Shown in pieces: positions 41,090 to 55,226 of a DNA stretch of 64,000 bases; positions within the stretch are counted from its first letter, which is position 1; every line of letters starts with the position of its first letter. A program made the position numbers and the translations under genes. The notes beneath the pieces are model-generated. The model was not told the DNA's origin. It saw only the letters and a program-made list of their open reading frames with translations, and did no database searches. The DNA comes from Escherichia phage vB_EcoM_WFH, in the sequence record NC_048194.1; one strand, written 5' to 3'.

Positions 41090-41950
41090 TTAAAACTCTT
41101 CTGCGTCGGTCGGAGTTTCATTGACAGGACCAGCGGCACCACTTGCTTCTTCCTGCTTGCTGCGGTCAATGTTAACGTTGCCGCCAACCACGTCGTTGTG
41201 GAATGCTTTGGCGACTTCGTACAGGCCTTTGTCCTGCACCAGACCTTCCAGCTCAAACTTCAGGACGGACCAGGTGTTGCCGTCTTTGGACTGAGACGCA
41301 GTACCCATGCGAACGATGTTCATGAAGGTCGGCGGCGTTTTCAGGCCCTGCGGAGTCTGAACTTTCTTCTGCTGCAGAGCGGTCATCAGCATGCGAGACG
41401 GCTTGATCATGGAAGAAGTCAGAGACAGCATTGCACTACCAAATTCACCAGTTTCTTCGTTCAACAGAATCACGAAGTGGTTACGTGTATCTGCGTAGTA
41501 AGGTGATTTCTTCTCGTGCACCTTGCCGTTTTCGTCTGGCACAAACACCTTACCGTTGATCTCAACAGCGCGGCCTGCCGCGACTTCTGCATCAACGTGC
41601 TCTTTGGTGAATTCACCTTTAAAGCCTTTATCGTCGGACTCGCGACCGCCCCAAAGGATGAAGGTGCGTTTGAATGCGCAAGGGATGATCTGCACGCCCT
41701 TCTTGCCGTCATACAATTCACCAGTAACGGTGTTGTACAGCATACCAGCTTTTGCGCCAGGAACGTGTTTTGGATCATCTTCGTCGACCATCGGAGACAT
41801 CTTTTGCAGTACGACGATAAAAGGAATGGCATAAGCGTCGGCATCGGCACCTTCAAAACCAGCGCCAAAATCGGTCATATCGACAAAATCAGCCATAGCG
41901 GACATCTGGGTGTTTTTTGCTGCAACTTCGGTAGTTTCTTTCTTAGACAT
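41090..41950 (-). CDS. Putative single-stranded DNA-binding / recombination protein
   Basis: 286 aa ending in an acidic tail that terminates in Phe (TDAEEF), a hallmark of phage SSBs; fold not verified. Confidence 0.4.
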   Translation of the reverse strand: MSKKETTEVAAKNTQMSAMADFVDMTDFGAGFEGADADAYAIPFIVVLQKMSPMVDEDDPKHVPGAKAGMLYNTVTGELYDGKKGVQIIPCAFKRTFILWGGRESDDKGFKGEFTKEHVDAEVAAGRAVEINGKVFVPDENGKVHEKKSPYYADTRNHFVILLNEETGEFGSAMLSLTSSMIKPSRMLMTALQQKKVQTPQGLKTPPTFMNIVRMGTASQSKDGNTWSVLKFELEGLVQDKGLYEVAKAFHNDVVGGNVNIDRSKQEEASGAAGPVNETPTDAEEF

Positions 41951-42901: not shown

Positions 42902-44425
42902 TTAATTCATCTTTTTGCCGTCGAGGATGTGATCAGCAAGCATTGACTTCATACTGAGTGAACGCTGAATTTCTTCGTCGATGGTATCAACACCAATAAA
43001 ATCAACATACAACACGCTTGATTTGGTGCCGATGCGGTGATTTCGGTCTTCGGATTGTTTGCGCAGCTCGTTGTCGTAGTTGCAAGAATAATAAATTGCC
43101 AAGTCAGCGGCGGTAAGCGTGATGCCGATGCCTGCCGCTGCAGCGTGGCAAACCAATACCTGTGTTCCACCATTCGCGACTGTGTTCTTCTGGAAGTCAT
43201 CAATTAAGAACTCGCGCTGCTCTTTGGACGTTTCACCGTTGTATACACCAGTGACCACGCCTTCAGACTCAAGCCAGTCCTTAATCTGGTTCATCTCTTC
43301 CTTAAAGATGGCCCAAACGATGAATTTGCGCTCTGGGTCGTCTTCCAGCACCCCTTCCACATAATCCTTAAAGGCCGTGAATCGTGGGTTGTCTTCCATG
43401 TAGACCATCTCATCATACACCTTAACAAAACCGGATGTCACCTGCTTCATCTTAGTGCGCGACGCGATCATCTCAAACTTGACGTTTTCTTCTTCGCCCT
43501 TGTATTCCATCAAATAGTTGTACTCATTCTTGAGTTCATCGTAAACATCGCGTTGTTTAGGCGACAACTCGAAGTCAATAAACTTGTACACCTTCTCTGG
43601 AAGGTCAGGCAAGTATTCTGCTTTTGTTGCACGAAAATAGTGCGGTTCCATCAGCCGGATAAGCTTGTCAAGGTTCTTGTACATCGGTCGGCCAAACTGG
43701 TCTTTGCGCGGCACTTGCGGAATCCCATAGCCATTGCCGCCGATTTTCTTGAGGATGGCTTGCATCTCTGGGTCGTGCGCTTCAAGCAGCACAGTGAATT
43801 CAGAGTTAAAGGCACGGAATGATTTGGTGCCGAGCAATCCTGCTTCAAGGAAGTGGTATTGCATGTAAATATCCGCAGGCGAGCGCGGCAACGGCGTGCC
43901 AGAAAGGATTCGACGGGCCTTTGCCAGCCGTCCCAATTCCACAACCTTGATGGAGCGTTTGGCTGTGTTATTCTTGATGCGCGTTGATTCGTCGATGATC
44001 ATCAGGCAGCGGTACTTCTTCAAGACCGACTCGATGTGTTGATAACCGACTGGTGTGTTGACAGTATCGATGTTGAATGAGAAGATGCGCGCAGGCACTT
44101 CGCCTTCGGGGTAGTGATCAGCAAACATCTTCTCCCAAAGCGCCTTGCCCTTTTTAGTTTTCATCTTGTCGTTGCCGCGCCAGTAGTGCCCAATCCACTT
44201 GATGGAAAGGTGCTCTGGCGCTTCACGACGAATCCAGTTTGAGTGGACACCGTTTGGAGCGATGACTACCATGGCATCGAACGCGCCAGCGTTGAAGTGC
44301 TTTTCAAACTCTGCCAAAGCGGTCCAAGTTTTACCAAGACCCTGTTCCATGAAATAGGCAAAGTATTTTCTGCGGCCTGCTTTATCAAGCGCCAGAAGCT
44401 GGTGGCGCATCCCTTGTGTTTTCAT
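42902..44425 (-). CDS. SNF2-family DNA helicase
   Basis: Walker A GLGKT, DEST box in MIIDESTRIKN, SGTPLPRS, C-terminal helicase motifs (EDRNHRIG). Confidence 0.85.
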   Translation of the reverse strand: MKTQGMRHQLLALDKAGRRKYFAYFMEQGLGKTWTALAEFEKHFNAGAFDAMVVIAPNGVHSNWIRREAPEHLSIKWIGHYWRGNDKMKTKKGKALWEKMFADHYPEGEVPARIFSFNIDTVNTPVGYQHIESVLKKYRCLMIIDESTRIKNNTAKRSIKVVELGRLAKARRILSGTPLPRSPADIYMQYHFLEAGLLGTKSFRAFNSEFTVLLEAHDPEMQAILKKIGGNGYGIPQVPRKDQFGRPMYKNLDKLIRLMEPHYFRATKAEYLPDLPEKVYKFIDFELSPKQRDVYDELKNEYNYLMEYKGEEENVKFEMIASRTKMKQVTSGFVKVYDEMVYMEDNPRFTAFKDYVEGVLEDDPERKFIVWAIFKEEMNQIKDWLESEGVVTGVYNGETSKEQREFLIDDFQKNTVANGGTQVLVCHAAAAGIGITLTAADLAIYYSCNYDNELRKQSEDRNHRIGTKSSVLYVDFIGVDTIDEEIQRSLSMKSMLADHILDGKKMN

Positions 44426-44844
44426 GACAATTCCTCTAAATACTTGATGATGTGATGAATAGTGCCCTTCACGATTATCTCACGTTGAACGTCTGCAATA
44501 TTATAACGCTTTAATTCAATCGAAGGGTGGACTAAATAAAACATCTTCTCAGAATCGACTTTAAGCAAAACAAATGATGGGTATTTCCAATCATTCCACG
44601 AAGAAAGAAAGCTGCACTGACCTTTCTCAAATGCATTTCTGAAAGGTGCAGTGGTGGCCCTTGCAGGCCACGATTCAAAGAACTTCATTTCAAGCCAAAA
44701 GCCGCGCCCTTTCCGGTTGGTGCCGATTACGTCCGGCACACCATCACCCGTCATTGATTCGATTCTTTGAAGCTTCAAGATTGATTCTGAATGCTTCTTC
44801 AAAGGCACGAATATGTATTTCTGTTCACGGTTATTTGTTGCCAT
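44422..44844 (-). CDS. VRR-NUC domain nuclease
   Basis: PD-(D/E)xK signature GVPDVIG ... FWLEMK; usual partner of SNF2 helicases in phages. Confidence 0.7.
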   Translation of the reverse strand: MATNNREQKYIFVPLKKHSESILKLQRIESMTGDGVPDVIGTNRKGRGFWLEMKFFESWPARATTAPFRNAFEKGQCSFLSSWNDWKYPSFVLLKVDSEKMFYLVHPSIELKRYNIADVQREIIVKGTIHHIIKYLEELS

Positions 44845-47728
44845 CTGGATACACCTGTTTGATCACGTCGACGATAAACATGTCAATACCTTCAAGCTTG
44901 CGGCCTTTCATCAGAAAGAATGCGCCGTTCCCGACGTTCTCTGCAATGTACTTACCGTATTTCTGGAACTTCTCTGGGCGAATCCTGAAGCGCATTGGCG
45001 AGTCGGTCGAATCGTCCTTGCACATAAGGTCAATGAACTGAGTCTCAAGCTTGTTTCCATACTGGTCAAACTCTGCGTAGCGGCCATCAGCTTGAAGACC
45101 CTTTTTAAGTTTGCCGTGCTTTGTATAAATGCCGCGCTCAAGACGTTTACGGATGCGTGTCGCTTCGTTCTCGTCAGCCAGCACTTTCTTGGTCAACTTG
45201 CCGATTACTATTGCACGCTCGTCATCGCCGACTTCCTTCATCTGGCGTATTGAAGCACCGGAAGTAACGCCAATCAGATAGGGGTCATTATACGCCCAGC
45301 CAAACTTGGTGTGCATCTCTGTAAGGTCGCCGTATTTGACTTCAGCATTGGCCAATGCATCCTTTTGTTTTTGCGTTAAGGTTCCGGCTTCACGCGCTTC
45401 GATGTACTTCATCGCCTTCACCATTCCGTACCCTTTGGCGTTCATTATGCCGCCGATTAGCTTTCCGTTAGCGATGGTCCAGTTCATTGAAGAGTGATCA
45501 GGGTCGATTGGCACATAATCCACGCCTTCCTTTGCAAGTTCACGTAATATCGCAATCGTCTGGTCTTCGTCCTTAGCAGCGCGTAAGCAAGCAGCGGCAA
45601 ATTCCAACGGGTAGTGTCGTTTAAGCCACAAGGTCCAGTAAGTCACGACCGCGTATGACACGGAGTGTGACTTGTTAAAGCCCCATGACCCGAACGTCGC
45701 CATCGCCTGCCAAAGCTTTCTTGCATCCGCTTCCGGTACGCCGTTATTTATTGCGCCTGCAACGAAGTCTTCGCCAAGCTTGTTAAAGTATTCCTCACCC
45801 TTACGACCTGACATCGCCTTACGCACAGCTGACGTTTTCGCCCAGTCGAATGAACCAATCTCTTTAACCACGGCCATGATTTGCTCTTGGTAAAGAAACA
45901 CGCCATAAGTCTCTTTTAAGTACGGCTCAAGCTGCGGCACGTCGTACTCAATCGGCGCACGTCCTGCCGCGCGTTCAATGTATTTCTGGGCCATACCGGA
46001 CGACAACGGGCCAGGTCGGCCAAGTGCTGTCAGGTTATCGATTTTGTTAAAGTTATCAACGTGCACAAAGTTGGTCACTGAGCGTACAGCGTCGCCTTCA
46101 AACTGGAAGATGCCTGACATCTTGTTTTCGTTAAGGATGTCAAGGACGCTTTGGTCATCAAGCTTGATTCCGTACAGCGTTTCAGCATCTATCACGCCAG
46201 TATCAGAAATGATTCCGAGGGTGCGAAGACCCAATGCATCAAGCTTCAAAAGGTTAAGGTATTCGCTGTCAGGCTTATCAATTTGTGCAATCCCTTCCGC
46301 CGTTACCGTACAGTAATCAGAGATTGGGTCATTACAAACGATGATTCCCGCTGCGTGAACGCCAGTGTGGGAAGGGTGAATCTCAAGGTCACCCATGCAT
46401 CGCGCGGCATCGGGATATTTAGCCACAAACTCTTGGCCCGTGGTCGTTGTTGCAAAGGTGTCCTCCAGGCCGTGGCCATAACGGGCGTCACCGGATGAGT
46501 ATTCAAGCAATGCGTTTTTAATGTTGGCCGTTTCGTGATATCCAATGTTGAATTTCTTACCAACCTGAGCCATTACTGAGTTGGCCTTAAGCGTGTTGAT
46601 GTTGCCAAGTTTTGCAACGTTCATTTCGCCGTATTTTTCTTTAAGGTAATCAAAAACCATATAGCGTTTGGTATCCTCAAAGTCAATATCAATATCAGGA
46701 AGGTCTGCGCGGCTTACGTCAATGAATCGGGCAAACAGTAGCTTATACGGGATTGGGTCAACCTCCGTGATGCCGAGGCAATAACAAACCAGTGAACCAG
46801 CCGATGAGCCGCGAGCGGGTCCGACGAGCATTTTTGTTTTTGCGAATCGTACAAGGTCCGCTACCACCAGAAAGTATGAGTCGAAATCTTTCAGCTGAAT
46901 CTGGTGAATCTCTTCGTTGAATCGGTCCTCATATTCCTGAGTCCATTCTTTGATGTGACCTGCCTTAAGGCGGTACTCCATCCCCTCACGAGCAAGCTTT
47001 ACCATGTCACCAGCAAGGTGGATAATCGGTGCCTTGCGCAGCTTCAGGTCAAGCCCAACGATTCCATTTGCAATATCAACCGCATTGGCCGTTGCTTGAT
47101 TCAACTCGTCTTCGGTCAGGATTCCTTTAAGCTGTTTGCGCAAGTCTTCCGCGTCAACGATGCAGTGCGGCTTAACCGTGTCTCGAACTTCCCATGCATA
47201 AGCAAAGTCAACGTGCTCAGGTGAAGGCATGTGGTTGTATCCGGTTAAAACCAGCGGCCTTCCGTTGCTGCGGTGAGCCAATACCTGGCGCTTGGCCAAA
47301 AGGAACGATGATGGGTTGACGTCTATATAATCATAGTCCTCTGGCCGCAGCAGCTCCACGGCCCCGCCACAGAATTTAACGACGCCATCGAGCGCCCCGA
47401 ACTCTGCACGGGTCAGTCCGCCGCGCTGTGTTGCAAGCGTGGTCGCGTTGTAAAAGGATTTCAGGTCAAGCGCCAATATCCAAGCCTTCGGTTTGAATCC
47501 CTTTTTCGGGTCCGCATCAGGGTCAATGATTGGAATCTCCATACCGAACATAGGCTTGATATCATTCTTCTGACATTCCTTTTCCCATCGAACGTGACCC
47601 CATGTATTGTTATCAACTAATGCCGCGACTTCGCAGCCCAACTCTTTGAGCCGTGCTATAATTTCAGGATGCCGTCCATATACTTCTTTGAACGTGTAAC
47701 CGCTGCGAACTCTCAATTGTGGAAACAT
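44831..47728 (-). CDS. dnaE: DNA polymerase III alpha-type (DnaE-like) replicase
   Basis: N-terminal PHP domain; polymerase signature GPARGSSAGSLVCYCLGITEVDP; 965 aa. Confidence 0.9.
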   Translation of the reverse strand: MFPQLRVRSGYTFKEVYGRHPEIIARLKELGCEVAALVDNNTWGHVRWEKECQKNDIKPMFGMEIPIIDPDADPKKGFKPKAWILALDLKSFYNATTLATQRGGLTRAEFGALDGVVKFCGGAVELLRPEDYDYIDVNPSSFLLAKRQVLAHRSNGRPLVLTGYNHMPSPEHVDFAYAWEVRDTVKPHCIVDAEDLRKQLKGILTEDELNQATANAVDIANGIVGLDLKLRKAPIIHLAGDMVKLAREGMEYRLKAGHIKEWTQEYEDRFNEEIHQIQLKDFDSYFLVVADLVRFAKTKMLVGPARGSSAGSLVCYCLGITEVDPIPYKLLFARFIDVSRADLPDIDIDFEDTKRYMVFDYLKEKYGEMNVAKLGNINTLKANSVMAQVGKKFNIGYHETANIKNALLEYSSGDARYGHGLEDTFATTTTGQEFVAKYPDAARCMGDLEIHPSHTGVHAAGIIVCNDPISDYCTVTAEGIAQIDKPDSEYLNLLKLDALGLRTLGIISDTGVIDAETLYGIKLDDQSVLDILNENKMSGIFQFEGDAVRSVTNFVHVDNFNKIDNLTALGRPGPLSSGMAQKYIERAAGRAPIEYDVPQLEPYLKETYGVFLYQEQIMAVVKEIGSFDWAKTSAVRKAMSGRKGEEYFNKLGEDFVAGAINNGVPEADARKLWQAMATFGSWGFNKSHSVSYAVVTYWTLWLKRHYPLEFAAACLRAAKDEDQTIAILRELAKEGVDYVPIDPDHSSMNWTIANGKLIGGIMNAKGYGMVKAMKYIEAREAGTLTQKQKDALANAEVKYGDLTEMHTKFGWAYNDPYLIGVTSGASIRQMKEVGDDERAIVIGKLTKKVLADENEATRIRKRLERGIYTKHGKLKKGLQADGRYAEFDQYGNKLETQFIDLMCKDDSTDSPMRFRIRPEKFQKYGKYIAENVGNGAFFLMKGRKLEGIDMFIVDVIKQVYPDGNK

Positions 47729-48270
47729 TATTTACTCCAGATGTCATATACGCCAATTTGTTGGCAGACTTTGTGCAGTAATATTACGTCGTCTAATGCA
47801 CGGTGTTTCTGTTCATATTTTCCGAAATATAATTCATACAGCTCTTGAAGCTTAACTCTTCGGCCAAAAATAGGCAAGGTTTGCTCGACTGTACAAATGT
47901 TTATTTCTGGAAAATTAACATCACCAAGTGTAAGACCTTCGCGCTGTAGTGCATAATCAAGAATGTTCTTATCGAACGCATGGTTGTGCGCGATAGTTGC
48001 ATCAGTCTTCTTGAAGATTTCTTTTAGCTGCGGAACGAAATTGATGAATGGTGGATTGCACTCAAGGTCTTCATTTGTTAATCCGGTAATCTTTGTGATG
48101 ATTTCTTCAATCACAATTTCAGGATTAATTATGAACTCGAAAGTTTCAAGAATCTCTTTTCCATCCGTCAACAGGCCTGCAAATTCAATAGGGCGCGGCT
48201 GCATCCCAAGCGGCGCTTTCGGGTGCACGGTTAATCCGGTTGTTTCGAAGTCATAAGGGAGAAATAACAC
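47728..48270 (-). CDS. dnaQ: DnaQ-like 3'-5' proofreading exonuclease (DEDDh)
   Basis: Exo I YDFETTGL, Exo II HNHAFDKNIL, Exo III HRALDDV; stop overlaps the dnaE start (TAATG). Confidence 0.85.
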   Translation of the reverse strand: MLFLPYDFETTGLTVHPKAPLGMQPRPIEFAGLLTDGKEILETFEFIINPEIVIEEIITKITGLTNEDLECNPPFINFVPQLKEIFKKTDATIAHNHAFDKNILDYALQREGLTLGDVNFPEINICTVEQTLPIFGRRVKLQELYELYFGKYEQKHRALDDVILLHKVCQQIGVYDIWSK

Positions 48271-48324
48271 ATTAGCCTCCTACAAAAAGGCCGCCCATTA
48301 GGACGGCCACAGATTCACGATTCG

Positions 48325-48876
48325 TTATACAGTGTACGGAGTACCGTCTTGATTCAACCGCACGATGAACTTAAGGTCGACACCAATGATTTCACGCGTA
48401 TCAAAGATCACATAGTTGTAACGACGCTGACCAGCAATGTTTGGGTTGGTGTGAGAGTCGGTCACAACTTCCTGCGCAACCTGAATGCCTTCTTCTTTAA
48501 AGAACTTGCGCCATTCAGCAAGTTCAGCGGCAGTCACGTGCATACCAAGATGGCTAACCTGATTGTCGTGCGCATCGATGTATTCGATGTTTTCGTGAAT
48601 CCAGTTGCAACCTTTTGTATAGTCAAGAATTTCAAGCTCAAGAGGCTTACCAGCTCCGCCATCGGTGCCGTTGCCAGCCTGATAGTTGAAGCGCAAGTCA
48701 GCTTCGTTGGTGCAATCGCCGCGCTGACCCTTAAAGACATCAGCTTCAAATACGCGACCAGTAGCAACAACGTGATCATGGAACCATTCTGTCAGGCCGA
48801 TTTTAGCCAGGAAATTCTGTGCGCGCTGAGCACCTGGAATTGACAGGGCGATTTGTTCAATTTTAAAATGTGGCAT
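48325..48876 (-). CDS. VOC / glyoxalase-fold protein (tentative)
   Basis: N-terminal FKIEQIALSIPGAQRAQNFLAKIGL and second-half HLGMHV pattern. Confidence 0.35.
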   Translation of the reverse strand: MPHFKIEQIALSIPGAQRAQNFLAKIGLTEWFHDHVVATGRVFEADVFKGQRGDCTNEADLRFNYQAGNGTDGGAGKPLELEILDYTKGCNWIHENIEYIDAHDNQVSHLGMHVTAAELAEWRKFFKEEGIQVAQEVVTDSHTNPNIAGQRRYNYVIFDTREIIGVDLKFIVRLNQDGTPYTV

Positions 48877-48966
48877 TTTGTTTCCTTAATTAAATATTAT
48901 TGATTAATTACTGTGTTGTCTTCGTCCTGTTTTTCAGGAGCAGCGACAACTTCAAATGTTCTTGAT

Positions 48967-49650
48967 TTATTTACCAAATGGAATATCAGTACCAGACATA
49001 AAGCGCCATGCGCCCGTAATTAAGATATGGCGAATGAAGTCAGCAATTACTTGCGGCTCAGTCTCCAATCCATTCATCAGCGCCTTTTTCTGGTATTCAG
49101 CAGCATACTCAGGAGTCCAGCCGCGAGTCGCGCAAACAGCATCTTCAATCTGTTTGGACATGCCAGTACCACGTAGCTTGTTAGGACTAATAGAGAATAC
49201 CGTGATCCCGTATTTAGGCGTAAGCTCGTGAGCCATCTGCTTGCTAATCATGAGCGCAGCAGCCTTGGAAGCATTATAACACAAGCTGGACGTCATAGGA
49301 ATATGCGCAGCGTTGGAAACGATGTTGATCACAAAACCTTTGTTGTCAATAAGACTTTTCAGCGCGGCCTGAGTCGTGTTGACGAAAGAGAAGGCGTTGG
49401 TGTGCATAACGCGATTGAACTCTTCGTAGTTAACATCTTCGAACCAGTTGTTGGAGTTGACGCCAGCGCAGTTGATCAAGCCTTCTACGTCGTATTGAGA
49501 GAGAAGCTCTTTCATCTGTTTCGCGTTACGGATGTCATAGCCGTTCTCCAAATCAATACCGACAACTTCATGACCGTAAGCGCCAAGGGTGTCAAAAATG
49601 GATTTACCAAGACCGGAATTGCAGCCAGTTACAACAATTACTTTTTTCAT
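48967..49650 (-). CDS. Short-chain dehydrogenase/reductase (SDR)
   Basis: Cofactor motif VTGCNSGLGKS, NCAG, catalytic Ser ... YNASK. Confidence 0.8.
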   Translation of the reverse strand: MKKVIVVTGCNSGLGKSIFDTLGAYGHEVVGIDLENGYDIRNAKQMKELLSQYDVEGLINCAGVNSNNWFEDVNYEEFNRVMHTNAFSFVNTTQAALKSLIDNKGFVINIVSNAAHIPMTSSLCYNASKAAALMISKQMAHELTPKYGITVFSISPNKLRGTGMSKQIEDAVCATRGWTPEYAAEYQKKALMNGLETEPQVIADFIRHILITGAWRFMSGTDIPFGK

Positions 49651-49715
49651 TTATTTATCCTTTTTGGACTTCGTTTCGATGAGATAAATATAACTCATCG
49701 AAACGCACAAGTAAA

Positions 49716-50588
49716 CTATTTATTGAAATTAATATTATGGGTGTTGACAAGACGTTCACACATGGCGCTGTAAACACCATCATCGTGTATTGAGTCTTCG
49801 TGCTTCAGGCCGCTGATTGCGAAGCGTGTAAGCTTGACAATCTTAAGCTCGAACAGATGCCACATGTGGTAGTCTTCCGGCGTTTTCAACGTCACGCCAT
49901 TAGGGAAAAGCACCTGCATAACCTGACCTACCATCACAGCGTTATCGCCATAGACAGCGTTGCGCTCACGGAAGGTTGCTGCCATCGCATCAAGAATATC
50001 GGCGGCAGTTGCCGGAGATTGTTCAACTTCCACAGCCTTAGTCTCTTCTTGCCCTGTTGCACTTGGATCAATTGCTAATTGTTGCACCACTTCACCTGCC
50101 TTGCAAAGATTAAATGTAAAAGCGATTTTATTTTGAGCAACGGAATTATAATACAATGCTTCATCTTGCATCCGCGCGAGTACGTCTTGTCGGTCGTCGA
50201 ATACATTGATGATTCGATAATCGCCGTGCCGCAATGCGTGCGACAGCCATGCAGATTTCATAATAGTTGATGGACGTTTGTCGCCATAGTCTCTCATCTT
50301 GATTGTAAATTCATCAAAAGGGAAAACATTGTCCAGACGTTCAAAAGTCACTTGTCTGTATTTTTCTGGCCTTGCAGTCCAATATTCAACCGCCTCACCG
50401 CGAAGAGATGCCGACTCTACTGCTGATGCAATGTGAGGATAGAACTGATCATAACCAATACCGCTGTGATAATCATCATAGTCTGACAACGGACCTGCCA
50501 CCTTGATGCGGTCTAAGCGCCAACGGTCATCAAACAGCGTTCCGTCAAGGTCGAATACGTTTAAGATTTCGCTGTTTTTAATGCTCAT
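49716..50588 (-). CDS. HAD-superfamily phosphatase domain fused to an uncharacterised C-terminal domain
   Basis: Motif I FDLDGTL, motif II WTARP, later Lys and FDDRQD; C-terminal about 140 aa unassigned. Confidence 0.6.
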   Translation of the reverse strand: MSIKNSEILNVFDLDGTLFDDRWRLDRIKVAGPLSDYDDYHSGIGYDQFYPHIASAVESASLRGEAVEYWTARPEKYRQVTFERLDNVFPFDEFTIKMRDYGDKRPSTIMKSAWLSHALRHGDYRIINVFDDRQDVLARMQDEALYYNSVAQNKIAFTFNLCKAGEVVQQLAIDPSATGQEETKAVEVEQSPATAADILDAMAATFRERNAVYGDNAVMVGQVMQVLFPNGVTLKTPEDYHMWHLFELKIVKLTRFAISGLKHEDSIHDDGVYSAMCERLVNTHNINFNK

Positions 50589-51388
50589 CCTTTTGATACT
50601 CCATCTTTAGCAACTGGATTGTTGGTGATTGGCATCGCACTCCAAAACTGGATGCGCAACTCTTCTTGCTGTGCCGTGGTATCCATCCAATCACGATACC
50701 AAGGGCAATGGGCTTTACCGTGACGAGGAAATGCGCACTTACCCATACCAATGCATTGCGGCTGCAGTAATGGATTCGCCCAAGGGTGCACCTTGAGGAC
50801 TTCCGCAACCATTGCGCGGAATACTTCTTGATACTCTCCTTGCGTGCGCGTGCACAAGCGGTTTGACGCCATCTGCTGCAGCGTGCGCAAGTTGAACTTT
50901 GCCATGATATGCGTTTGCATATTAGAAGGCAACACGGCACGTGCATCTTGAATCTCTGCGCCAGCCGCGCGAAGCTCTTGATACAAAGCGTCGATAGTCG
51001 CCATCGCATCATCCCACTTCTCTGCCAGTTCAGCTGCCTTCTCGTCATGGCGAGTCCATCCCTTTGGATCATCCTCTGGGTAAGTGAATTTAGCAGGACG
51101 AATCGCATCAAATGCAGACGACTCCTGAGCGCGGCTGGTGCGTTCTTGATATGCGCCTGTGCGTGTGCGTACCATCTGATGGGTCATGTTCTTTGATACA
51201 GCTGTGATATCAAAGATATAGTCCACAAAGTCAAAAGGCGACTTGATTGTATCAAGCATGTAGCGCCAATGCTCTTGCTTCTCTGATTCCGTCATCTCAG
51301 AGACAGGCTTACCAGTCATGCGCGTGTTCTTTGTTTCCAGCAAAAGGTCAAGTGCATCTTGGGTGTATCGAATTAATTCAACTTTCAT
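50585..51388 (-). CDS. ThyX-family (flavin-dependent thymidylate synthase-like) protein with divergent active-site motif and Cys-rich C-terminal extension
   Basis: ThyX-like N-terminus MKVELIRYT; HQMVRTRTGAYQERTSR where canonical ThyX has RHR-x7-S; C-terminal CIGMGKCAFPRHGKAHC. Confidence 0.6.
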   Translation of the reverse strand: MKVELIRYTQDALDLLLETKNTRMTGKPVSEMTESEKQEHWRYMLDTIKSPFDFVDYIFDITAVSKNMTHQMVRTRTGAYQERTSRAQESSAFDAIRPAKFTYPEDDPKGWTRHDEKAAELAEKWDDAMATIDALYQELRAAGAEIQDARAVLPSNMQTHIMAKFNLRTLQQMASNRLCTRTQGEYQEVFRAMVAEVLKVHPWANPLLQPQCIGMGKCAFPRHGKAHCPWYRDWMDTTAQQEELRIQFWSAMPITNNPVAKDGVSKG

Positions 51389-51401
51389 TTTAATTGTCCT
51401 A

Positions 51402-51848
51402 TTAACGGTAATTCACTAGTTGCTGATCACCAGAGAAGGTGCAATGATAAACGAATTGTGCGTTATAAAGCAACTGAAAACTTTTCTTTGGTTCATTATT
51501 AGAACTCATTGATGTAAAGATTTCTGCACCAGAACGGTTTTCACCAATCAGATTGATAAAGCCGCCAGTTGAACGAGGTTGAACGAAAGTGAAACGTTGC
51601 ATCCACGGAGTCCGGTTGACACCTTTTCCGGTGAATCCTTGAATCTGAATATTCAGACCTTCTTGCTCATTCACACCGATGTAAGTGGTAATCTTCGCAC
51701 CAGTCGTTGCTGCGGTCTTACCGTCCATCGCTTCGCAATCGTAAACAGCGATTGAATCGGAAGTACGGATGGCGGCTTCAGTCGCTTCCATATACATGGT
51801 GCCGAGAATAGCAGTTGCGGCAAGCGCGATTCCAGTGATTCGTTTCAT
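51402..51848 (-). CDS. Secreted protein of unknown function
   Basis: N-terminal signal peptide MKRITGIALAATAILGTMYMEA; 148 aa. Confidence 0.5.
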   Translation of the reverse strand: MKRITGIALAATAILGTMYMEATEAAIRTSDSIAVYDCEAMDGKTAATTGAKITTYIGVNEQEGLNIQIQGFTGKGVNRTPWMQRFTFVQPRSTGGFINLIGENRSGAEIFTSMSSNNEPKKSFQLLYNAQFVYHCTFSGDQQLVNYR

Positions 51849-51913
51849 TTTCGTTTCCTCTATGAGTTCTGCTTCAATGATTAAAGTATACGCCCATTGA
51901 AGCAGAAAGCAAA

Positions 51914-52909
51914 TTATTTATTAGCAATATAAGCAAATTTTTGATAGTTATTTGCTTTGATGAGTTTTTCGACTTCAACAAGGTCATGAGCGACGTCATC
52001 AAGCAAGATATTGCGCCAGGTCGCGAATCGACCGACACTAAACACGTTTAAATCCATAGTCAGCTGCAGGAGTAGGGCGTGTCGCAAGTCTTTCGGAATG
52101 TCGACAATCTTGCCATATTTCTGGTCGACCTTTTCAACTTCTTCAAGAGCAATGTCACTCCATGAAAGGCCAAAGGCCGTCAACACTTCGTCGACTTCTG
52201 CGCGCAGCTTCATGTCACGGTAACGAGTGATGCCGCCTGCGGCTTCAACTGCAGCTTCACTCACGCTGACCAAAGGAATTGTTTCAATGATAAGCGTGTC
52301 ACCAGTAATTGATGCGCGGTAAGTTCTGACGGAGTAGTCAGGGAAGTAAATTGTCTGATACAAATCACACTTACGTTTAATCTTAAAGCGGTAAACGCGA
52401 ATGTTTGCTTTATCAAATGAGAAATCAAGCTTTTGATCAATTCCAGCAAGCTTCATCATGACTGGCAGCGGCGACGTGTTGATGATTGGCGTCTCGCTAT
52501 AGCCGCAAAGAGTATCAACCGGAGTATTAAAGAATATGCGGTCACCCAGTTTGTCGACAAGCTGATCATAAAAGTCATCAGGCGCAATATAACGCGTTGC
52601 AGTCTTAAGCTTCATGATTGAACGGCTGCCAAATTGATTGGTGACCTTCATGGAATACATATTGGCAAGGTTGATTGGGCAATGGTCGTGATAGTAGTTG
52701 CCGCGAAAATACACAGCCTTGTCAACTGTCACGGCCTTAAAAGGGATTCCGGTAATACGGCTTACTTCTTCGCCGCGAAAGCGTAGCAGCGCCTTGTGCT
52801 GTTGCGCTCGTTCCCCTGCTTCGTACACAATAGAGTTCGGGAAGTGACACGCGGTGATAAGTCCTGCCAATCCGCCGCCGATAATCATTACAGGTTGTTT
52901 CATGTTCAT
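51914..52909 (-). CDS. FAD/NAD(P)-binding Rossmann-fold flavoprotein (UDP-galactopyranose-mutase-like or GidA/TrmFO-like, unresolved)
   Basis: N-terminal IIGGGLAGL with acidic residue about 20 aa later; C-terminal GRFATWRN resembles a mutase-type motif. Confidence 0.55.
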   Translation of the reverse strand: MNMKQPVMIIGGGLAGLITACHFPNSIVYEAGERAQQHKALLRFRGEEVSRITGIPFKAVTVDKAVYFRGNYYHDHCPINLANMYSMKVTNQFGSRSIMKLKTATRYIAPDDFYDQLVDKLGDRIFFNTPVDTLCGYSETPIINTSPLPVMMKLAGIDQKLDFSFDKANIRVYRFKIKRKCDLYQTIYFPDYSVRTYRASITGDTLIIETIPLVSVSEAAVEAAGGITRYRDMKLRAEVDEVLTAFGLSWSDIALEEVEKVDQKYGKIVDIPKDLRHALLLQLTMDLNVFSVGRFATWRNILLDDVAHDLVEVEKLIKANNYQKFAYIANK

Positions 52910-54041: not shown

Positions 54042-55226
54042 TTAACGCGCTTTCAAATCACGGTACACGGTCAGATTCTTCTTAGCGCGGGTGATGGCTG
54101 TGTACATCATCTTGGCATACGGAACGCCGCGCAAGATTTCTTCTAGCACGCACACATTGTCCCACTCGCTGCCTTGCGATTTGTGCACCGTTATGACATA
54201 GCCATAGTCCATGCCTCCAACAGCGCGTTGAGCCTCTTTGCGCACTTCCTGATCAGTAGAGAAGGAAAGAGGATTTATCTTCACCTTTATATCTTTGCCA
54301 TCGGTAAGCGAGCGCAAATTGACATACATGATTTCATTAGACTCGTCTTCATCCCTTTCAAAGTCCGGTACTGGCTCATAACTAATAACAATCCCTTGCT
54401 CGCCATTACAGAATCCTGGACCGTGTTGATTGAATGTGCAAATAACTTTCTCGCCGATTCCTGGCATTGGCGTTATACGTCCGCTCACTTGGCGCAATAA
54501 TGAATTCCATTTATCTTTGGTGCTATTATAAGAGCAAATAATTTGATCATCTTCGCCCATGAATTTCTTCAGTGCGGTAACGCGCGGCGATTCAGCCAAC
54601 ACCTTTACGTCATCGTATTCACGCGGAGGAAGTCGGTTGCCCTGTCGCACGAAGAAGGAAGCGCGGATTATGTTTGACTCTTTCCCCTGCCGCATGATTT
54701 CGGTTAACAGTACGTCAACGGCATCTTCAGTGAAGTAGGCGGCGGCTTTTACCGGAGGGACTTGTCCAATGTCGCCTAATGCCAGGACAGGGATGCGGTG
54801 ATCAAGAAGGCGCTCTGTGTCCCACTCACCGACCATTGAAGCTTCATCAAGGACGACAAGGTGCGGCCTTTCATCAAGCGTTGACTTTCTTGCGAAGATT
54901 GGTTCATTGTCATCGTTAACGCCGCGCACGTTATAGATGAACTGGTGAAGGGTCTTAGCGCCACGACAACCTTTTTGCTTTAATCGGCTGGCGGCCTTTC
55001 CGGTCGGCGCAATATAAATGGCACCGTACTCACCGACACAACGGCGCACAATCTCACGCGCAATAGAGGTTTTACCTGTTCCTGCATAGCCAGCGATGAA
55101 AAACACGCGCTTCGTCGTTTTACCGTCCTGCAATCGCTTGTACCATGCAACGGCCTTTTCGATGGCATCAATCTGTTGCGCGTTGAACTGAATCACTGGC
55201 TCATTATTAAATTCTGGAATGTTCAT
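54042..55226 (-). CDS. dda: Dda / RecD-like SF1B DNA helicase
   Basis: Walker A GYAGTGKTS, Walker B VVLDEASMV, motif V/VI ITVHKSQGSEWDNV. Confidence 0.8.
   Translation of the reverse strand: MNIPEFNNEPVIQFNAQQIDAIEKAVAWYKRLQDGKTTKRVFFIAGYAGTGKTSIAREIVRRCVGEYGAIYIAPTGKAASRLKQKGCRGAKTLHQFIYNVRGVNDDNEPIFARKSTLDERPHLVVLDEASMVGEWDTERLLDHRIPVLALGDIGQVPPVKAAAYFTEDAVDVLLTEIMRQGKESNIIRASFFVRQGNRLPPREYDDVKVLAESPRVTALKKFMGEDDQIICSYNSTKDKWNSLLRQVSGRITPMPGIGEKVICTFNQHGPGFCNGEQGIVISYEPVPDFERDEDESNEIMYVNLRSLTDGKDIKVKINPLSFSTDQEVRKEAQRAVGGMDYGYVITVHKSQGSEWDNVCVLEEILRGVPYAKMMYTAITRAKKNLTVYRDLKAR

Follow-up and report, generated by a model that had tools for sequence, protein, structure and literature searches.

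A C-family DNA polymerase and a separately encoded DnaQ-superfamily exonuclease as the probable replicase and proofreader of an Escherichia phage

The window analysed here, a stretch of 64,000 nucleotides from Escherichia phage vB_EcoM_WFH (NC_048194.1), carries on its minus strand two adjacent genes: an exonuclease gene with a GTG start at 47728..48270 (180 amino acids) and, immediately downstream, a dnaE gene with an ATG start at 44831..47728 (965 amino acids). An earlier reading of this DNA, made from sequence alone, had taken the pair for a self-contained two-subunit replicase whose genes are translationally coupled. We propose, with a probability of about 0.8, that the pair codes for a replicative polymerase of the phage's own and for a proofreader supplied as a separate protein. 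The features of the locus are the following.

48289..48308, minus strand: terminator-like hairpin with an 8-base-pair stem (7 G-C pairs) followed by a T run, from a consensus scan
48276..48281, minus strand: Shine-Dalgarno sequence AGGAGG of the exonuclease gene, 5 nucleotides upstream of the GTG, read from the sequence
47728..48270, minus strand: DEDDh (DnaQ-superfamily) 3'-5' exonuclease, 180 amino acids, from Pfam, PHROG 192 and alignment
47735..47738, minus strand: GGAG ribosome-binding site of dnaE, lying within the end of the exonuclease gene and 6 nucleotides upstream of the ATG
44831..47728, minus strand: DnaE-type (C-family) DNA polymerase, 965 amino acids, from Pfam, NCBIfam, PDB sequence matches, AlphaFold2 (AF2) and Foldseek
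47009..47728, minus strand: PHP domain of the polymerase (residues 1 to ~240) with a degenerate metal site, from hhalign and a MAFFT alignment to E. coli DnaE
45524..47008, minus strand: polymerase core of palm, thumb and fingers (residues ~241-735), with Pfam PF07733 at 243-500 and PF17657 at 519-663
45218..45523, minus strand: helix-hairpin-helix and short linker (residues ~736-837), a shortened equivalent of the beta-binding domain
44852..45217, minus strand: predicted OB fold at the C-terminus (residues 838-959, of which 866-896 are an insert), modelled by AF2 as strands beta1-3, a helix and strands beta4-5

Both gene identities are beyond chance. The larger protein matches the Pfam families DNA_pol3_alpha (3e-63), DNA_pol3_finger (1e-37) and PHP (8e-6), and a PHROGs family annotated as 'DNA polymerase' (3.8e-271); the smaller one matches Pfam RNase_T, a DEDDh family (9.7e-22), and PHROG 192, 'DNA polymerase exonuclease subunit' (2.9e-37). 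Among the NCBIfam models, DnaE passes that of the superfamily, TIGR00594 (475.2 against a cut-off of 434.35), and none of the equivalog models, the best of which is PRK05673 (495.8 against 1002). Sequence matches in the PDB are to the Pol III alpha subunits of Taq, E. coli and M. tuberculosis (1e-78 to 3e-85 over residues ~240-798), and hhalign sets residues 1-783 on residues 4-857 of E. coli DnaE with a probability of 100%. The AF2 model, built on the family alignment, has a mean predicted local distance difference test score (pLDDT) of 84.5 and a predicted template modelling score of 0.76, and Foldseek aligns it with full-length DnaE structures (7pu7, 3e0d, 2hpi and 5fku) at template modelling (TM) scores of 0.67-0.75.

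The polymerase core, with its Pol-beta-like palm, retains the catalytic residues D345, D347 and D497, which align to D401, D403 and D555 of the E. coli enzyme. These three aspartates, together with D349, R306-G307-S308 and H688, are invariant in all 38 members of the family alignment (57-86% identity). In the fingers motif GFNKSHS at 683-689, G683, F684, N685, H688 and S689 are invariant. The protein is shorter than bacterial DnaE, as had been pointed out before (965 against 1160 amino acids in E. coli), and most of the full-length homologues listed measure ~930-1000 amino acids, the few longer ones including two that probably owe their length to inteins. We reject a truncated pseudogene, since no catalytic residue varies and family members are typically of this length; domain mapping shows an enzyme that looks intact, and not the truncated, non-functional polymerase that the sequence-only reading had named as fatal to its proposal. 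From its sequence and structure model, the phage DnaE appears to be a complete, compact DnaE1-like C-family polymerase.

The two long homologues are P0115 (1232 amino acids), which carries the intein-splicing Pfam domain PF14890, and P0096 (1215 amino acids), similarly long and with no PF14890 match on record; the ~250 extra residues in each suggest inteins inserted in phage dnaE genes. A different irregularity is seen in the record of phage Ro157lw (MH051335.1), where ~130 nucleotides of dnaE, equivalent to window 45344-45475, are tandemly doubled. The doubling hits the helix-hairpin-helix region (residues ~751-795) and the gene is split into annotated coding sequences of 795 and 197 amino acids; it may have arisen by true duplication or by misassembly. 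Phage AV128 has an extra ~160 nucleotides in the same region of dnaE. The dnaE gene of the window is intact at 45344-45475, with no doubling.

The PHP domain scores at the borderline of its Pfam model (26.7 bits against a cut-off of 26.4). Residues 1-240 are placed on the E. coli PHP domain by hhalign, and among the Foldseek matches are PHP phosphoesterases and the alpha-epsilon chimera 4gx9. The nine metal-ligand positions, as given in Table 1 of PMC3666897, were read off an alignment of the phage family to E. coli DnaE; in an active PHP domain they hold the set HHDHEH[C/H]DH (PMC3666897). In the phage family, the HxH of positions 1 and 2 is replaced by R6 and R8, conserved in 37/38 and 36/38 members, respectively, and the following positions are occupied by E15, N40 or a gap, E64 (the canonical residue), K81 and G122. 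At position 8 stands an invariant N165 beside a variable residue, and no conserved histidine is found at position 9 in the 38-member alignment. E64 and the N/D of position 8 are the only canonical residues, and the site does not qualify as an active PHP. Arginines are typical substitutions at PHP ligands (PMC3666897), and a DnaQ proofreader, whether separate or embedded, has been linked to the loss of these ligands (PMC3666897; 2026 survey, PMC12926913). The phage PHP is at least as degenerate as the inactive PHP of E. coli and is predicted not to be a nuclease.

At the protein's other end, the alignment to the E. coli and Taq enzymes continues through GGIMNAKGYG (~759-768) to residues ~784-798. 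Past the helix-hairpin-helix, the AF2 model shows two short helical segments and then, at 838-959, a five-strand barrel with an inter-strand helix, whose local Foldseek matches are OB folds (RPA, Stn1, AsnRS and OBody). This fold is recognised solely through the structure model: the C-terminal 170 residues cannot be matched by sequence to the E. coli OB domain, the hhalign alignment ending at ~783 (E. coli 857), and a Pfam search of residues 661-892 at E 10 returns noise only. A 2011 survey of viral replicases left the region past the fingers of viral C-family polymerases unassigned (PMC3201878), a point that the modelled OB fold would settle. Relative to the wider-family consensus, the fold contains an extra basic loop of ~22 amino acids at 866-896 (window 45041-45133), modelled with lower confidence.

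The sequence-only reading had called for mapping of the clamp- and tau-binding regions, and this mapping finds neither a tau-binding domain nor a Q-type clamp motif. The tau-binding domain is absent because the protein stops 6 residues past the last OB strand, where E. coli DnaE continues for ~85 more residues. Between helix-hairpin-helix and OB fold, the phage DnaE lacks a further ~85 residues, a region that in E. coli carries the internal clamp motif QADMF. A regular-expression scan detects no clamp motif of the Qxx[LM]xF or QL[SD]LF type in DnaE or in the exonuclease. The string closest to a clamp motif, GIDMF (947-951), is conserved and opens the last OB strand of the model; we consider it a weak lead only. 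With no tau-binding domain and no recognisable beta-clamp motif, the phage DnaE does not appear to be built to plug into the Pol III holoenzyme of the host.

In the exonuclease, the Exo I-III residues D7, E9, D100, H156 and D161 are invariant in an alignment of 16 homologues and E. coli DnaQ. The correct start of the gene is the GTG at 48270, with its AGGAGG site: it keeps Exo I (D7 and E9), which lies upstream of Met23 and which a start at Met23 would remove, and the homologues begin MLFxVFDxETTG. The Bas99 and Ro157lw records do start the exonuclease at Met23 (a 477-nucleotide gene), losing D7 and E9 (window 48205-48270). The best relative of known structure is the PolC-type exonuclease domain 2p1j (E 6.5e-6). 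The protein remains below every NCBIfam cut-off, including those of TIGR01406 dnaQ_proteo (43.8 against 222.7) and TIGR00573 dnaq (36.1 against 71.5), which argues that it is not a recent copy of the host dnaQ.

The junction between the two genes reads AGT AAA TAA TG, and the last A of the exonuclease stop codon (47728) is also the A of the dnaE ATG, so that the overlap of one nucleotide noticed in the sequence-only reading is real. As worded there, the step from this overlap to coupled translation and a complex of two subunits lacks support. Within an annotated 26-kb segment of phage Mansfield, overlaps are seen at 24 of 45 same-strand junctions (one nucleotide at 7, four at 15), and other one-nucleotide junctions occur in the window, for example at 55226 and 59774. 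The dnaE gene moreover has its own ribosome-binding site, a GGAG that is also annotated as such in Mansfield, the spacing of the two genes among relatives extends from -35 nucleotides to >2 kb, and the exonuclease lacks the alpha-binding tail of epsilon. Since about half of the phage gene junctions overlap and the spacing varies among relatives, the one-nucleotide overlap alone is weak evidence for pairing.

Conserved synteny is strong evidence. We sampled 80 loci on IMG/VR viral contigs with DnaE relatives of 34-69% identity, 77 of which have enough upstream DNA, and an exonuclease homologue lies 5' of dnaE on the same strand in 77/77. The distance from the exonuclease stop to the dnaE start is an overlap of -1 to -35 nucleotides in 35 loci, a gap of 0-30 nucleotides in 7, of 31-150 nucleotides in 15 and of >150 nucleotides in 20; the genes thus overlap or lie within 30 nucleotides of each other in 42/77 loci. 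At one locus with 37% DnaE identity (L047:1823-4029), a Dda-like helicase and a FEN-like 5'-3' exonuclease are found between the DEDDh exonuclease and dnaE, a module that appears rearranged yet still devoted to replication. The probable functional pairing is better supported by the gene order (77/77 loci) and the degenerate PHP than by the overlap, and a putative trans-acting proofreader is well supported by the synteny and the predicted dead PHP site. While the analysis shows what the genes are, that the active sites are intact and the PHP degenerate, which domains are present and that the synteny is conserved, we only infer that the exonuclease edits for this particular DnaE, and hold it plausible that the two proteins bind each other in a stable two-subunit complex and that their translation is coupled.

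Upstream of the pair, the terminator-like hairpin at 48289..48308 lies directly 5' of the ribosome-binding site of the exonuclease, ending ~8 nucleotides before it, and is annotated as a terminator in Mansfield. The consensus scan gives no promoter-like site between the hairpin and this ribosome-binding site; transcription of the replicase cassette would therefore have to rely on read-through or on a promoter of a type that the scan misses.

Downstream, two further genes follow on the same strand.

44422..44844, minus strand: predicted PD-(D/E)xK-fold nuclease, 140 amino acids, with the motif D38...E52-x-K54 and a match to PHROG 2165, overlapping the end of dnaE by 14 nucleotides
42902..44425, minus strand: SNF2-family helicase, 507 amino acids (Pfam SNF2-rel_dom 4e-22, Helicase_C 6e-11), overlapping the nuclease gene by 4 nucleotides

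Exonuclease, DnaE, PD-(D/E)xK nuclease and SNF2 helicase form a conserved four-gene cassette, which is kept down to ~43% DnaE identity and whose last member, the helicase, is found 3' of dnaE in 40/48 informative loci. The 140-residue protein has no Pfam match, even at E 10. Its AF2 model is of modest quality (pLDDT 75), and Foldseek matches it best to the RecU/PrfA Holliday-junction resolvase (E 2e-3), with other matches to SPARDA nuclease domains and, at E 0.13 only, to the VRR_NUC structure 4qbn. It is probably a PD-(D/E)xK nuclease, and its earlier label of VRR-NUC is not established. The rest of the genomic context described in the sequence-only reading, namely the SNF2 helicase, a Dda-like helicase, a RepB-type primase and a VapE/VirE-like NTPase, is confirmed. 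The replication module also includes a ligase and ThyX, and in the complete genome of Bas99 (114 coding sequences) DnaE is the only annotated DNA polymerase.

Orthologous cassettes are present in Pbunavirus, the PB1-like Pseudomonas phages, such as ORF86-89 of JJ01, in which ORF88/ORF89 are the pair (PMC9583000). The DnaE of PB1 is 58% identical to that of the window, and the Pbunavirus and Wifcevirus cassettes have the same order, strand and overlapping stops and starts, as well as a small nuclease-like gene of ~137-140 amino acids. Pairs from Wifcevirus include Mansfield gp064/gp065 and Bas99_0044/0045, other Wifcevirus records being 94-99.9% identical at the DNA level. We see no substantive difference between the pair of the window and those of both genera; the ~22-residue OB insert (866-896) is a difference of its DnaE from the family consensus.

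With the core of E. coli Pol III (alpha DnaE, epsilon DnaQ and theta), the phage pair shares a variant, metal-free PHP, a separately encoded DEDDh exonuclease, and an architecture of palm, thumb, fingers, helix-hairpin-helix and OB fold. In contrast to E. coli alpha, the phage DnaE is 195 amino acids shorter and has neither the tau-binding domain nor a QADMF-type clamp motif; unlike epsilon, the phage exonuclease has no 60-residue C-terminal tail; and no theta, clamp or clamp loader was found for the phage. The phage genes are adjacent, whereas the E. coli genes are not (dnaE at 205 kb and dnaQ at 236 kb). The best overall structural matches are the DnaE1 enzymes of M. tuberculosis (7pu7, TM 0.73) and T. 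aquaticus (3e0d, TM 0.75), which keep the nine PHP ligands and edit by means of the PHP domain, whereas the phage DnaE has lost most of these ligands. PolC of Firmicutes is likewise a C-family polymerase dependent on a DnaQ-type exonuclease, and the phage exonuclease has 2p1j as its best relative of known structure; in PolC, however, the exonuclease is inserted in the PHP of the same polypeptide, whose OB fold is N-terminal, whereas the phage has two genes and the domain order of DnaE. The DnaE-like polymerases of actinobacteriophages and Bacillus phages have the catalytic core in common with that of the window (28-37% identity), the matches covering only ~52-82% of the protein, mainly the core.

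We propose the following scheme for the phage replicase. DnaE would retain its inactive PHP as a structural module, followed by palm, thumb, fingers, helix-hairpin-helix and C-terminal OB fold. Because the PHP nuclease site is predicted to be dead, 3'-5' editing would have to come from the adjacent 180-residue DEDDh exonuclease, which would be made from the same transcript, just 5' of dnaE. The cassette, the Dda-like helicase, the RepB-type primase and the VapE-like NTPase would jointly constitute a largely host-independent replication and recombination module. A more speculative extension, which we regard as possible but rather doubtful, is that the pair forms a minimal C-family replicase independent of clamp and tau, with the tail-less proofreader docked through an interface different from that of E. 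coli, for example the QPRxIEF and CTVEQ surfaces, which are conserved and specific to the family, and with speed and processivity provided by the compact OB/helix-hairpin-helix end or by coupling to the phage helicases.

Several observations weigh against a polymerase and dedicated proofreader working together in this way. The exonuclease lacks the ~60-residue tail of E. coli epsilon, which contains the segment that ties epsilon to the PHP domain of alpha and the clamp motif QTSMAF; the phage exonucleases consist of the catalytic domain alone, ending 8-12 residues past the last helix. The E. coli mode of tethering epsilon would not be able to apply here, and any complex between exonuclease and DnaE, if it forms, would use an interface unlike the E. 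coli tether. The exonuclease is also a generic member of the DnaQ superfamily, with comparable scores for the models of PolC, DinG and epsilon. When 1.84 billion cluster representatives are searched with a profile, no exonuclease-DnaE fusion is seen among the best 150, all of which measure 147-285 amino acids, so that an interaction receives no Rosetta-stone support. No clamp, clamp loader or single-stranded DNA-binding protein is annotated in Bas99, although several proteins that neighbour the pair are of unassigned function, and the annotation offers no explanation of the processivity of the enzyme. Finally, a literature search for biochemical or interaction data on the phage DnaE family yielded none, only genome annotations and the 2011 survey (PMC3201878).

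The phage alpha could alternatively work in the host replisome, with the host beta clamp and possibly the host clamp loader or epsilon, and not be self-contained. The absence of an annotated phage clamp or clamp loader would fit this arrangement, as would the retention of the helix-hairpin-helix and OB modules, which are clamp-adjacent in bacterial DnaE, and the resemblance of the conserved GIDMF (947-951) to the end of the QADMF clamp motif of E. coli alpha. We nevertheless consider it unlikely. The phage DnaE stops right past the OB fold with no tau-binding domain, the ~85 residues that include the region of the E. coli internal clamp motif are missing, and neither protein has a Qxx[LM]xF- or QL[SD]LF-type motif; GIDMF itself is placed by the model at the start of the last OB strand and not in a free loop, and the phage has its own exonuclease. 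That this exonuclease could instead be an independent nuclease, engaged in degradation of host DNA or RNA, in end-processing during recombination or in counter-defence, and merely an operon-mate of dnaE, seems less probable still. Its generic DEDDh domain without a tether is compatible with such a role, the same superfamily includes DinG-type and RNase T-type enzymes, and the gene lies >150 nucleotides from dnaE in 20/77 loci, sometimes with whole genes between them (L047). Against this, it occupies the upstream same-strand position in 77/77 loci, down to 34% DnaE identity, and the genes inserted between the two are themselves replication genes. The loss of the PHP site is family-wide, which in bacteria goes with a separate DnaQ proofreader (PMC3666897; PMC12926913).

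The role of DnaE itself could also be questioned, in that it might be an accessory repair or translesion enzyme akin to DnaE2, leaving replication of the phage genome to the host Pol III. The protein does score 331 bits against the NCBIfam 'error-prone DNA polymerase' model, and it has no holoenzyme-docking elements, but the DnaE1 replicase models score higher (496 and 475 bits). It is, moreover, part of a full replication module with primase, helicases, ligase and ThyX, is accompanied by an intact proofreader partner, unlike DnaE2, and, in a virulent phage, has no other annotated polymerase beside it, all of which makes an accessory role highly improbable. We therefore retain a phage-encoded replicative polymerase with a separate proofreader as the preferred interpretation.

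The surroundings of the replication module include genes of other kinds. Directly 5' of the replicase cassette, at 48325-52909 on the minus strand, is a run of metabolic-type genes labelled in relatives as glyoxalase-family, short-chain dehydrogenase (FabG-like), HAD phosphatase/polynucleotide kinase, ThyX thymidylate synthase and UDP-galactopyranose-mutase-like. This run might be a nucleotide or DNA modification module. Its 331- and 183-residue proteins have no Pfam match, the 331-residue one being UDP-galactopyranose mutase-like in the Mansfield annotation. Considered as candidates for a phage clamp, the neighbouring 331- and 281-residue proteins gave no PDB sequence or Pfam matches. On the other side, adjoining the replication module at 41090-41950 on the minus strand, a 286-residue protein matches Pfam Pam3_Gp34 (4e-86), a family named for a cyanophage protein.

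The pair is already known and represents no new kind of biology: it is annotated in GenBank relatives and published at the level of genome papers. Over the 3.4 kb that encode it, identity is 99.9% with Shigella phage CWP003 and Wifcevirus WFH, and 94-97% with ~25 further E. coli myoviruses assigned to Wifcevirus. In Mansfield, where stop and start likewise share one base and both ribosome-binding sites recur, the two genes are annotated as 'DNA polymerase III alpha' and 'DNA polymerase III epsilon', and in Bas99 as 'DNA polymerase' and 'DNA polymerase exonuclease subunit'. The description of such polymerases as uncommon among phages agrees with our counts, DnaE homologues (E <1e-20) being present in 1264 of 50,697 phage records (2.5%); C-family polymerases had previously been found in 28 of 808 genomes of double-stranded DNA viruses (PMC3201878). 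Coverage of at least 80% of the window DnaE is reached in 375 phage records, mostly of Pseudomonas PB1-like phages with ~58% identity. A metagenomic protein set contains >5800 DnaE homologues, and many of the closest are encoded by phages of Pantoea, Serratia, Luteibacter, Xanthomonas and Burkholderia, on contigs 65-73 kb long.

This DnaE family is large, a hallmark replicase of the ~65-73 kb myoviruses related to PB1 and Wifcevirus, among them Pseudomonas phages with a therapeutic use. The remaining interest is in a C-family replicase that, in this pair, would be compact and have neither tau nor clamp modules, and in a family of which our literature search found no biochemically characterised member. 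If the proposal of a minimal replicase is true, it could help explain the very short infection cycle of Wifcevirus, which is reported in work cited in PMC11990801. A compact alpha with a proofreader of 180 amino acids would suit the study of proofreading and processivity in C-family polymerases, and might be a useful enzyme.

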